Shown: one piece after another, positions 1,694-7,360 of the stretch | Layout of the letters: every line of letters begins with the position of its first letter | Numbering within the stretch: position 1 is the stretch's first letter | IMG/VR virus record: IMGVR_UViG_2531839232_000010 | DNA: 23,210 nucleotides | Strand: one strand, 5' to 3' | From: a virus | Lineage: Duplodnaviria; Heunggongvirae; Uroviricota; Caudoviricetes | The notes under the pieces: generated by a model | Told to the model about the DNA's origin: nothing | Databases searched by the model: none | Seen by the model: only the letters and a program-made list of their open reading frames with translations | Position numbers and translations under genes: made by a program

Positions 1694-3220
1694 ATGAAAA
1701 AAGCCATAGCATATATGCGATTTTCATCACCAGGTCAGATGTCTGGCGACTCATTAAACCGACAGAGAAGACTTATTGCTGAATGGTTAAAGGTAAATAG
1801 TGATTATTATCTTGATACCATAACATATGAAGATTTAGGATTAAGTGCATTCAAAGGAAAGCATGCACAATCAGGAGCTTTTTCGGAATTTTTAGATGCT
1901 ATAGAGCATGGTTATATATTGCCAGGAACTACATTGTTAGTTGAAAGTCTGGACAGACTTTCAAGAGAAAAAGTCGGTGAAGCGATTGAACGTCTGAAAT
2001 TGATTTTGAATCACGGTATTGATGTTATAACTCTTTGCGACAATACAGTCTATAATATTGACTCTTTGAATGAGCCATATTCATTAATAAAAGCCATACT
2101 TATAGCACAAAGGGCAAATGAAGAAAGCGAGATAAAGTCAAGTCGGGTTAAATTATCATGGAAGAAAAAACGGCAGGATGCACTGGAATCAGGTACGATT
2201 ATGACGGCGTCTTGTCCGAGATGGCTCTCCTTAGATGACAAAAGAACGGCTTTTGTTCCAGACCCCGACAGGGTGAAAACTATTGAGCTAATTTTTAAAC
2301 TCAGGATGGAAAGGCGCTCATTGAATGCAATAGCCAAGTATTTAAATGATCATGCTGTAAAGAATTTCTCAGGAAAAGAAAGTGCATGGGGGCCTTCTGT
2401 AATTGAAAAATTATTAGCGAATAAAGCTCTGATAGGTATATGCGTACCTTCATATCGTGCAAGAGGGAAAGGGATAAGTGAAATCGCTGGCTATTATCCC
2501 AGAGTCATATCAGATGATTTGTTTTACGCTGTACAGGAAATTCGGTTGGCACCTTTTGGTATTAGCAATAGTAGCAAGAATCCTATGCTAATAAATCTAC
2601 TTCGAACAGTTATGAAGTGTGAGGCTTGTGGTAATACCATGATTGTTCATGCGGTATCTGGAAGTTTGCATGGCTATTATGTTTGTCCGATGAGAAGATT
2701 ACATCGATGTGACAGGCCATCAATAAAGAGAGATTTGGTTGATTATAATATCATTAATGAATTGCTTTTTAATTGTAGCAAAATTCAACCAGTTGAAAAC
2801 AAGAAAGATGCTAATGAAACTTTAGAGTTAAAAATTATTGAGCTTCAGATGAAAATTAATAATTTAATCGTTGCATTGTCTGTCGCGCCTGAAGTTACCG
2901 CTATAGCAGAGAAAATAAGACTATTAGATAAGGAATTACGAAGAGCTTTGGTATCATTGAAAACTTTGAAGAGTAAAGGTGTAAATTCATTCAGTGATTT
3001 TTATGCTATTGACTTAACCAGTAAAAATGGACGAGAGTTATGCCGTACACTTGCCTATAAAATATTCGAAAAAATCATAATTAATACGGATAATAAAACC
3101 TGTGATATCTATTTTATGAATGGCATTGTTTTTAAACACTATCCTTTAATGAAAGTAATATCCGCCCAGCAGGCGATAAGTGCTCTCAAATATATGGTTG
3201 ATGGTGAGGTTTATTTTTGA
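1694..3220 (+). CDS. ybcK: Large serine recombinase (YbcK-like), 508 aa
   Basis: N-terminal resolvase-type motif AYMRFSSPGQ (Y-x-R-x-S-S-x-x-Q, catalytic Ser), central Cys cluster C-x2-C...C...C (zinc ribbon), C-terminal coiled-coil-like region. AT-rich codon usage unlike the lambda-like flanks. Resembles DLP12 YbcK as recalled. Confidence 0.8.
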   Translation: MKKAIAYMRFSSPGQMSGDSLNRQRRLIAEWLKVNSDYYLDTITYEDLGLSAFKGKHAQSGAFSEFLDAIEHGYILPGTTLLVESLDRLSREKVGEAIERLKLILNHGIDVITLCDNTVYNIDSLNEPYSLIKAILIAQRANEESEIKSSRVKLSWKKKRQDALESGTIMTASCPRWLSLDDKRTAFVPDPDRVKTIELIFKLRMERRSLNAIAKYLNDHAVKNFSGKESAWGPSVIEKLLANKALIGICVPSYRARGKGISEIAGYYPRVISDDLFYAVQEIRLAPFGISNSSKNPMLINLLRTVMKCEACGNTMIVHAVSGSLHGYYVCPMRRLHRCDRPSIKRDLVDYNIINELLFNCSKIQPVENKKDANETLELKIIELQMKINNLIVALSVAPEVTAIAEKIRLLDKELRRALVSLKTLKSKGVNSFSDFYAIDLTSKNGRELCRTLAYKIFEKIIINTDNKTCDIYFMNGIVFKHYPLMKVISAQQAISALKYMVDGEVYF

Positions 3221-4347: not shown

Positions 4348-4630
4348 TTTGAGAAAAGCAGCGCGTAGTCGGGAATGCCAAGTAAGAATCCCTGGCGTAT
4401 GTAATGGCAACCCTGAAACGTCTGTACTGGCACATATCCGGCTGACTGGATTGTGCGGCACCGGTACCAAACCGCCAGACTTGATTGCCACCATTGCATG
4501 TTCTGCCTGCCACGACGAAATCGACCGCCGCACACATTTTGTCGATGCTGCATATGCAAAAGAATGCGCGCTGGAAGGTATGGCGAGAACACAGGTTATC
4601 TGGCTGAAAGAGGGGGTTATTAAGGCGTGA
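4340..4630 (+). CDS. ybcO: DUF1364-type putative nuclease (YbcO-like), 96 aa
   Basis: ATG 4340 with AGGAGG 6 nt upstream; [35 protein letters not shown]...[11 protein letters not shown] has four Cys plus His (metal site). The TTG at 4301 in the ORF track is an upstream extension. Confidence 0.75.
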
Positions 4631-4989
4631 ATACCTACAGCATCACATTACCCTGGCCTCCGAGCAATAATCGCTACTACCGGCATAATCGCGGGCGCAC
4701 GCACATCAGCGCAGAAGGGCAGGCATACCGTGATAACGTCGCCCGAATCATCAAAGGCTCCATGCTGGATATCGGCCTGGCTATGCCAGTGAAAATCCGT
4801 ATTGAGTGCCACATGCCGGATCGCCGTCGCCGTGACCTGGATAATCTGCAAAAAGCCGCTTTTGACGCACTCACCAAAGCAGGTTTCTGGCTGGATGATG
4901 CTCAGGTCGTTGATTACCGTGTTGTGAAGATGCCCGTTACCAAAGGTGGGAAGCTGGAGCTGACCATCACCGAACTGGGGAATGAATGA
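4627..4989 (+). CDS. rusA: Holliday-junction resolvase RusA, 120 aa
   Basis: [18 protein letters not shown]...[25 protein letters not shown]... matches E. coli RusA from memory, including the acidic catalytic cluster. Confidence 0.92.
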
Positions 4990-5126
4990 TGTTTGAGTCT
5001 TATATGGCAGAACGTCTTCGCCACCGCTGGATGCGCCTGCGCTTATATCGTTTTCCTGGTTCTGTTTTGACCGATTACCGGATACTGAAGAATTACGCCA
5101 AAACACTGAAAGGAGCTGCCGCATGA
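4986..5126 (+). CDS. ylcG: YlcG-like small protein, 46 aa
   Basis: ATGA overlap with the rusA stop; [46 protein letters not shown]; its stop overlaps the next ATG. Below the ORF-track cut-off. Confidence 0.5.
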
Positions 5127-5812
5127 ATACCCAATATTTACAGTATGTCCGCGAGCAACTCATTGTGGCTACCGCTGATTTGAGCGGAGCAACGAAAGGA
5201 CAGCTTGAAGCCTGGCTGGAGCATGCACAATTTGATACTGGTACATACAAACGAAAGAAGCCGCGCATTCTGGATGAGGTAACTGGCAGGATGATTACGC
5301 TGGATAATCCGCCGATTTCCGGTAAGCAGTCGTACGCAAAAGGTTCATCCATTGCACTGGTCAGCCAGGTTGAGTTCTCAACCTCGTCATGGCGCCGCGC
5401 GGTTCTGTCTCTCGAAGAACATCAGAAAGCGTGGTTGCTGTGGAGTTACAGCGAAAGTGTTCGCTGGGAACATCAGGTCACCATAACGCAGTGGGCATGG
5501 AGCGAGTTTAAGACTCTGTTGGGTACCAGGAAAATTGCAGGTAAGACACTGGAACGTTTGAAGAAGTTGATCTGGCTGGCGGCACAGGATGTGAAGAACG
5601 AGCTGGCAGGGCGTAAGACCTATGAATACCAGGAGCTGGCATCACTGGTGGGAGTGACATCAAAAAACTGGTCTGAGACATTTACTGAACGCTGGGTTGC
5701 AATGAAACACATTTTTCTACAGCTTGATAGCCAAGCTTTATTGCTTTTAACGAAAACACGTTCAAAACAAAAGACCACATTTTCACAGCAAGATATTGCA
5801 AAACTGGATTAA
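5123..5812 (+). CDS. Putative late-gene antiterminator in the Q position (non-lambda type), 229 aa
   Basis: Last gene of the nin operon, immediately upstream of terminator hairpins and the lysis cassette. No cysteines (lambda Q has a zinc finger); HTH-like segment YQELASLVGVTSKNWSE. Family assignment is positional. Confidence 0.5.
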   Translation: MNTQYLQYVREQLIVATADLSGATKGQLEAWLEHAQFDTGTYKRKKPRILDEVTGRMITLDNPPISGKQSYAKGSSIALVSQVEFSTSSWRRAVLSLEEHQKAWLLWSYSESVRWEHQVTITQWAWSEFKTLLGTRKIAGKTLERLKKLIWLAAQDVKNELAGRKTYEYQELASLVGVTSKNWSETFTERWVAMKHIFLQLDSQALLLLTKTRSKQKTTFSQQDIAKLD

Positions 5813-5880
5813 AAATCATATATTTTATGTAAATCTGATATTTTGCCAATGTTGTACGCACTGGCAGTAATCCAAATTCA

Positions 5881-5917
5881 AGCCCGAGGTTTAAAGCCTT
5901 GGGCTTTTCTGTTTCTG
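5881..5917 (+). terminator. Intrinsic terminator-like hairpin (9-bp stem AGCCCGAGG / CCUUGGGCU with one G-U pair, 7-nt loop) followed by TTTTCTGTTTCTG
   Basis: Read directly from sequence. Confidence 0.55.
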
Positions 5918-5993
5918 AACGGTGAGTAGCCTTCCAACCTACCCCAGCCAGGGGGTCTTCAGCTGTTGAGTTGATATTGCTTAGCCCTCTGTT

Positions 5994-6017
5994 GCCAGCT
6001 ACATGCTGGCTTTTTTA
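5994..6017 (+). terminator. Intrinsic terminator (6-bp GC stem GCCAGC / GCTGGC, 5-nt loop, TTTTTTA tract); candidate tR' of the late promoter transcript
   Basis: Read directly; classic rho-independent geometry, about 120 bp upstream of the holin start. Confidence 0.6.
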
Positions 6018-6133
6018 TTCCAGGCTTGTGGGGAGCATCAACTCCGTGCTTTGTCGTTAAATTACCCCGTGAGCCTGATTTCTGACATTTAACGTCCCGG
6101 CCTTTTGTCGGCGGCGAAACATTGGCTATTCAT

Positions 6134-6439
6134 ATGCACGAAAAAGAGAGCCTTGCCGGAGCGTTCTGGCTCGTTTTGCTGATCATCGCAGGTTGGGGCG
6201 GTCTGGTCCGCTACCTGATAGATGTGAAGCAGAGTAAAGCAACGTGGAGTTGGATAAATGCTCTGGCTCAAATAGTGGTATCAGGATTCACCGGTGTTAT
6301 TGGTGGCCTGATCAGCATCGAAAGTGGATTCAGTATTTACATGATTCTCGCGACAGCGGGGATTAGTGGTGCGATGGGTTCGGTTGCACTGACGTACTTC
6401 TGGGAACGACTGACAGGGGTGAAAAATGCAAAATCTTAA
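6134..6439 (+). CDS. Holin (three predicted transmembrane segments), not lambda-S-like
   Basis: MHEKESLAGAFWLVLLIIAGWGGLVRYLI...; three hydrophobic stretches, charged C-terminus, 3' overlap with endolysin R as in lambda S/R. Start uncertain: in-frame TTG at 6122 would add MAIH. Confidence 0.7.
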   Translation: MHEKESLAGAFWLVLLIIAGWGGLVRYLIDVKQSKATWSWINALAQIVVSGFTGVIGGLISIESGFSIYMILATAGISGAMGSVALTYFWERLTGVKNAKS

Positions 6440-6902
6440 TCCTCAGCGTAAAGCCTTCCTCGATATGTTGGCGTGGTCAGAAGGAACGGATAACGGGCGA
6501 CAACCGACACGTAACCACGGTTATGATGTTATTGTTGGCGGCGAACTGTTTACTGATTACTCCGATCACCCTCGCAAACTTGTCACGCTACACCCCAAAC
6601 TCAAATCAACAGCCGCCGGACGTTATCAGCTTCTTTCACGCTGGTGGGATGCTTACCGTAAACAGCTTGGTTTGAAAGACTTCTCCCCCAAAAGCCAGGA
6701 CGCAGTGGCATTGCAGCAGATTAAAGAGCGTGGTGCTTTACCTATGATTGATCGCGGTGATATCCGTCAGGCAATCGACCGTTGCAGTAATATCTGGGCT
6801 TCACTGCCGGGCGCTGGTTATGGTCAGTTCGAGCATAAGGCTGACAGCCTGATTGCAAAATTCAAAGAAGCTGGCGGAACGGTCAGAGAGAGTGAGGTAT
6901 GA
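6426..6902 (+). CDS. R: Endolysin R (lytic transglycosylase), 158 aa
   Basis: Near-identical to lambda gpR from residue ~7 ([20 protein letters not shown]...); the first residues (MQNLNP) differ from lambda's MVEINN. Confidence 0.95.
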
Positions 6903-7360
6903 GCAGAATAACCGCGATTATCTCCGCTCTGCTCATCTGCATCATCGTCTGCCTGTCATGGGCTGTTAATCATTACCGTGATAACGCCATTACCTACAAA
7001 GCCCAGCGCGACAAAAATGCCAGAGAACTGAAGCTGGCGAACGTGGCAATTACTGACATGCAGATGCGTCAGCGTGATGTTGCTGCGCTCGATGCAAAAT
7101 ACACGAAGGAGTTAGCTGATGCGAAAGCTGAAAATGATGCTCTGCATGATGATGTTGCCGCTGGTCGTCGTCGGTTGCACATCAAAGCAGTCTGTCAGTC
7201 AGTGCGTGAAGCCACCACCGCCTCCGGCGTGGATAATGCAGCCTCCCCCCGACTGGCAGACACCGCTGAACGGGATTATTTCACCCTCAGAGAGAGGCTG
7301 ATCACTATGCAAAAACAACTGGAAGGAACCCAGAAGTATATTAATGAGCAGTGCAGATAG
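6899..7360 (+). CDS. Rz: Spanin inner-membrane subunit Rz, 153 aa
   Basis: [44 protein letters not shown]... near-identical to lambda Rz from memory. Confidence 0.95.
7119..7301 (+). CDS. Rz1: Spanin outer-membrane lipoprotein Rz1, 60 aa, embedded in the +1 frame of Rz
   Basis: [24 protein letters not shown]... (lipobox LVVVGC), proline-rich; AAGGAG upstream of ATG 7119. Confidence 0.92.

Follow-up and report, generated by a model that had tools for sequence, protein, structure and literature searches.

The gene at positions 5123 to 5812 of a 23,210-nucleotide (nt) stretch of Caudoviricetes DNA (IMG/VR record IMGVR_UViG_2531839232_000010; the whole stretch is termed the window) occupies the place of the late antiterminator gene Q, and raises the question of which Q family its product belongs to and at which control site this product would act. 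An initial annotation had deduced the antiterminator role from gene position, and had proposed that the protein belongs to a Q family different from that of phage lambda or uses another mechanism. Based on the comparisons described below, positions 5123 to 5812 almost certainly encode the late antiterminator Q of a lambdoid, phage 82-type prophage of E. coli O157:H7, accompanied by the cognate qut site. Gene and control site are already known and already annotated, and constitute the phage 82-type Q switch for the late genes of the prophage. Work on the Q82 family dates back to the 1980s.

The Q protein and its family

The Q open reading frame (ORF) lies on the plus strand (as do all features described here unless indicated), runs from an ATG start to a TAA stop codon and encodes 229 residues. 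The start codon shares bases with the stop codon of an upstream 46-residue ylcG-like ORF (ATGA, 5123-5126), and a ribosome binding site (AAGGAG, 5110-5115) was read directly from the DNA at the same place as that annotated in the phage 82 record. When compared to Pfam, the deduced protein matched PF06323 (Phage_antiter_Q) over profile positions 1-217 of 220 with an E-value of 1.4e-94 and a score of 316.3 bits, compared to a cut-off of 25. No other Pfam family was matched at E≤1, including PF03589 (Q-lambda) and PF06530 (Q21). The protein was also matched to PHROGs family phrog_304 ('anti-termination protein Q-like', E 1.5e-108) and corresponds to RefSeq entry WP_001097228.1 ('bacteriophage antitermination protein Q'), while NCBIfam gave no match. 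The profile search thus placed the protein in an antiterminator family, and no placement in a family of other function was found.

Translated searches of phage genomes revealed the Q proteins of phage 82 (98.3% identity; X92588.1, 'phage 82 Q antiterminator'), Escherichia phage PhiR47_2 (98.7%) and phage 434 (87%). By pairwise alignment, the window protein and phage 82 Q (82Q or Q82; CAA63332.1) were found to be of the same length and to share 225 of 229 residues without gaps. Yin et al. 2022 (PMC9388147) divided the Q proteins into three families that are mutually without detectable sequence similarity, namely Q21 (PF06530), Q-lambda (PF03589) and Q82 (PF06323). Taken together, the PF06323 match, the near-complete identity to 82Q and the equivalence of PF06323 with the Q82 family reveal that the window protein is a Q82 family member, nearly identical to the prototype. 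The antiterminator role deduced from position and the proposal of a different Q family are both borne out.

The composition of the protein is in accord with its initial description as Cys-free and Trp-rich: the basic protein (isoelectric point 9.5) was found to contain no Cys and 10 Trp residues (4.4%). In the family alignment, which extends down to 30% identity, 6 of the 10 Trp residues are invariant (W90, W104, W126, W151, W183 and W191) and no conserved Cys column was detected; among 120 close homologues, 68 are devoid of Cys. Thus, the Trp-rich and Cys-free composition is characteristic of the family rather than accidental. By contrast, lambda Q (PF03589; PDB 4MO1 and 7UBN) has an 'arm' formed by a zinc ribbon, in which four Cys residues serve as ligands (PMC9388147). 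This zinc ribbon is lacking in the window protein, as the latter has no Cys, and sequence similarity between the two was undetectable, in agreement with the view that the protein is not of the zinc-ribbon kind. Phage 21 Q serves the same function and occupies the equivalent place in lambdoid genomes, and its family likewise gave no match to the window protein.

More distant PF06323 relatives, at 25-30% identity, were observed in phage N15 (gp40, 'late transcription activator'; 1495-2241 of the N15 stretch compared), phiKO2, PY54 and Vibrio phage VP882 (Q). Since N15, phiKO2 and PY54 are linear-plasmid prophages, and VP882 also carries a relative, the range of PF06323 extends beyond the classical lambdoid phages. 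To deepen the alignment, homologues were also searched for from the Q protein of a Morganella phage; this returned 14 proteins only, and the N-terminal third of the structure model described below was still of low confidence.

Late promoter, pause site, terminators and predicted leader RNA

The initial annotation had expected late gene expression of non-lambda specificity, and this agrees with the DNA that follows the Q gene, which is that of the phage 82 late promoter pR' and pause site and not that of lambda. A promoter scan detected a -35 hexamer (TTGCAA, 5796-5801) inside the last codons of Q and a -10 hexamer (TATATT, 5819-5824), which are separated by a 17-bp spacer (5802-5818) and together match the consensus at 9 of 12 positions. 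Bird et al. 2016 (PMC5001585) described the wild-type 82 pR' transcript as beginning with AAA, followed by a -10-like pause element with an extended -10, by GCC at +15 to +17, and by a paused RNA end at U25 (also +26), with a G just before the pause site and no G after it. We anchored the +1 register on these landmark positions, which are given in words in that paper. By this approach, all published landmarks of the 82 late promoter were found to fit a single register in the window, with +1 at A5831. The initial AAA (5831-5833) is 7 bp downstream of the -10 hexamer; the sigma70-dependent pause element (5836-5847) comprises the extended -10-like TGaTATTTT at +6 to +14 (5836-5844) and GCC at +15 to +17 (5845-5847); and the pause site (5854-5856) consists of G5854 (+24), T5855 (U25, the main paused RNA end) and A5856 (+26).

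In the literature on 82 pR', the Q binding element (QBE) lies between the -35 and -10 hexamers, within -31 to +30. The corresponding spacer block of the window, TTGCAAAACTGGATTAAAA, is conserved in phage 434 and in Gifsy-1 and is regarded here as the putative Q82 QBE. In phage 434 (OL657226.1, whose Q is described as 'Q82-like'), the DNA of the -35 hexamer, spacer, -10 hexamer, start and pause element is conserved to about +26, whereas past the pause site the DNA is unrelated, terminator and downstream genes included. The -35 hexamer is also conserved at the Gifsy-1 isrJ locus. This conservation in phage 434 and Gifsy-1 supports a functional block that would run from the -35 hexamer to the pause element. 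PhiR47_2 differs from the window at 3 of 351 positions of the stretch from promoter to terminator, none of which are within the promoter, pause or terminator elements. Compared to lambda, where the pause is at +16, the window pause is at +25, and the sequences of QBE and pause are also different. Because the QBE and pause architecture differ, neither lambda Q nor 21 Q would be expected to act at this pR', and the specificity is probably of the 82 type.

Late terminators followed by a lysis cassette had been proposed downstream of Q, and both were detected. The first intrinsic terminator after pR' (5880-5916) has a 12-bp stem with a 3-nt loop (5880-5906) and a T-rich tail and is identical in PhiR47_2; the second (5994-6016) has a GCCAGC stem (hairpin 5994-6010) followed by TTTTTT and is conserved in PhiR47_2. 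Scanning of positions 4900-6500 revealed 6 terminator-like sites compared to 1.3 expected. The RNA of the leader (5831-5916) was predicted to fold at -27.6 kcal/mol (z -4.05), while the region 5917-6060, taken as a whole, folded no better than shuffled sequence (z -0.77). Next in order is the lysis cassette that Q would control (6134-7360; ORFs and RefSeq annotation), which encodes holin, lysozyme and Rz with Rz1 embedded at 7119-7301.

Antitermination by 82Q has been reconstituted and its mechanism shown in vitro. By analogy, RNA polymerase with sigma70 would initiate at pR' (+1 = 5831), after which sigma70 would re-bind the extended -10-like element at +6 to +14 and the complex would scrunch and pause at +25 with an RNA of 25 or 26 nt. 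Q, held on the spacer QBE via its C-terminal helix-turn-helix, would engage the paused complex with the help of NusA and stay with the polymerase, such that the modified enzyme could transcribe past both terminators (5880-5916 and 5994-6016) and on through the genes for lysis and morphogenesis. If Q were absent, transcription would yield no more than a short leader of about 80-85 nt (5831 to about 5915).

Two further sites were observed that overlap pR'. A minus-strand promoter-like site (5849-5822; TTGGCA, 16-bp spacer, TAAAAT; 10 of 12 matches) lies across the initial transcribed region of pR' and faces back into the end of Q; it may be a mere reflection of the AT-rich -10-like sequences. 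The minus-strand sequence TTGCAATATCTTGC (5788-5801) fits the CII-binding consensus TTGY-N6-TTGY and overlaps the pR' -35 hexamer, and in the phage 434 record the homologous site is marked by the depositors both as a CII site and as the -35 of paQ. A CII-dependent antisense promoter (paQ-like) at 5788-5801 was nevertheless rejected as a candidate, as the CII consensus did not occur above chance in the window (3 found compared to 5.5 expected).

The leader was also compared to Rfam, where positions 5828-5907 aligned with IsrJ, a Salmonella Hfq-binding small RNA (sRNA), at a sub-threshold score of 30.4 bits (gathering score 37; E 0.0013). In Gifsy-1, isrJ itself (2715-2821 of the Gifsy-1 stretch; 100 bits) is preceded by the same block of -35, spacer, -10, start and pause element as in 82 pR'. 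IsrJ thus looks like the short RNA that a Q82-type prophage makes from its late promoter when transcription is terminated. In the IsrK paper, IsrJ is treated as a neighbouring sRNA only. By sequence, the window should likewise produce an IsrJ-related RNA of about 80-85 nt in lysogens. Unlike in the window, the Q ORF of Gifsy-1 ends (at 1878) with a different C-terminus and is detached from the spacer block, the 82-type promoter block being about 840 bp downstream. The intervening segment of Gifsy-1 (1878-2731) harbors isrK, a C4-like antisense RNA and anrP, a module that looks like an insertion separating Q from its qut site.

Predicted fold and mode of action

A model of the Q protein was generated by AlphaFold2 from a 30-sequence alignment (mean predicted local distance difference test score, pLDDT, of 73). 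A helical domain of about residues 85-222 was modeled with confidence. Within this domain, the HTH-like segment of the initial description was recovered as a predicted helix-turn-helix at residues 169-186 (helices 169-176 and 180-186, pLDDT 84-94), in which Y167, L172 and W183 are invariant and A173, L175, G177, V178 and N182 are nearly invariant among homologues. The closest solved folds appeared to be those of AlpA and lambda Q, although the resemblance is weak; phage 21 Q was not among the top structural matches. Likeness of Q82 to the AlpA and lambda Q folds is not new, as it was already published in 2022, with Wen et al. cited. AlpA of Pseudomonas aeruginosa (PDB 7XYA and 7XYB) is encoded on the chromosome and regulates a cell-death pathway; it is shorter than the window protein (158-168 residues in the structures), and is only 13-17% identical to it, with no match at the sequence level. 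Searches of the PDB with the single Q protein gave nothing relevant, and a search with the 30-sequence profile gave only chance matches to ribosomal protein bS18 (E 1.2). Thus, the PDB copy searched holds no structure that matches the Q82 family by sequence.

The presence of a helix-turn-helix in the model, together with the annotation of the distant relative N15 gp40 as a 'late transcription activator', would also fit a conventional DNA-binding activator or repressor that occupies the Q position by chance and has no antiterminator function. This interpretation is hardly credible for a protein that is 98% identical to one for which antitermination has been reconstituted in vitro, and whose gene is followed by a promoter with a terminator directly after it to be acted on.

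The alternative suggestion that the protein might use another mechanism is not needed for the overall logic, which is that of a QBE, a sigma-dependent pause and terminator read-through; the atomic mechanism of Q82 is still unsolved in the literature (PMC9388147). A Q82-type antiterminator could, for example, act by a route other than the closed 'nozzle' that has been shown for Q21 and Q-lambda to surround the RNA exit channel. Loading of 82Q onto complexes that already carry about 100 nt of RNA, as described in the literature (PMC9388147 among the sources), is hard to square with a closed ring, and the question of a closed nozzle for Q82 is listed as open in PMC9388147. To this may be added that the Q82 family finds no solved structure by sequence in the PDB copy searched, and that the ring-forming part would be the N-terminal 85 residues, which are of low confidence in the model. 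Even so, we consider a route of this type unlikely. Similarly doubtful is the broader proposal that either Q82-type proteins modify the polymerase without a closed nozzle, or the constitutive leader of about 80-85 nt (5831 to about 5915) functions as an Hfq-binding sRNA akin to IsrJ. If true, such a leader sRNA in lysogens would be a counterpart of StxS, an RNA of Shiga-toxin phages. Neither proposal is particular to this locus, as the window is one more copy of the relevant sequences.

Several points weigh against the assignment of a functional phage 82-type Q and qut site and were considered in judging its strength. In the predicted structure, the N-terminal 85 residues are poorly defined, and the Foldseek matches of the model are weak (E 0.2-0.75). 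The QBE at about 5802-5818 was placed by its position in the literature and by conservation; full-text searches for a printed 82 pR' or QBE sequence with 12- to 13-mers of the pause region gave unrelated papers only. Four conservative substitutions distinguish the protein from phage 82 Q, all within its last 26 residues (E204Q, R211K, A218T and N224D). Finally, while the identities of the protein and of the cis landmarks were shown directly, the activity of this Q copy is deduced from near-identity to 82Q.

Prophage context and exchange of the Q module

The assignment of a phage 82-type Q and its qut site is consistent with gene order. The window order ybcN-ninE-ybcO-rusA-ylcG-Q-terminators-holin-lysozyme-Rz agrees with that of the phage 82 record, in which Q is preceded by orf151/ybcN, orf56/ninE, orf96/ybcO, rus and orf45/ylcG and is the last gene of the nin region. 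The window matches a prophage in an E. coli O157:H7 chromosome at 99.7% identity and has a DLP12-like early region (emrE, ybcK, ybcN, ninE, ybcO, rusA and ylcG) with lambda-like head and tail genes. Unlike phage 82, Q of the window is thus within an O157:H7 prophage with DLP12-like early genes and carries the four substitutions in its C-terminal tail, while the published late-promoter landmarks are the same. It was also observed that emrE, a multidrug efflux gene (1117-1449), and ybcK, encoding a 508-residue serine recombinase (1694-3220), follow the replication genes (P, ren) and precede the nin region, as in K-12 DLP12.

As this gene layout is that of the cryptic K-12 prophage DLP12, and as Q differs from the phage 82 prototype at four residues, the gene may be viewed as an inactive relic in which the C-terminal substitutions or the prophage context disabled Q and the late genes are no longer under its control. 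We judge this to be very improbable. The Q ORF is of full length with an intact ribosome binding site, the four substitutions are conservative, and the downstream head, tail and lysis genes are intact ORFs. Furthermore, the deposited phage PhiR47_2 has a 98.7% identical Q with the same qut DNA, and 696 complete E. coli records retain the same sequence with ≥99% identity. Among 5426 complete E. coli genomes, 1358 were found to carry the Q gene with its leader, these 696 records being those at or above 99% identity.

The borders of similarity to other phages were found to be sharp. DNA of the rusA-ylcG region (4600-5122) is about 94% identical in dozens of lambdoid phages, with divergence occurring exactly at the Q start codon; at the other end, the similarity to phage 434, which spans Q, the promoter and the pause element, ends near +26 (about 5857). 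As judged from these comparisons, Q and its qut site move as one exchangeable module, with sharp boundaries that are the usual mosaic behaviour.

Beyond correct annotation the importance of this locus is small, as this copy of Q adds nothing over the phage 82 prototype; Q82 is the sole classical Q family without an experimental structure. The late genes of this O157:H7 prophage are assigned to the 82 class of Q specificity and not to the lambda or 21 class, and this assignment bears on cross-activation among the many lambdoid prophages carried in one O157:H7 genome.
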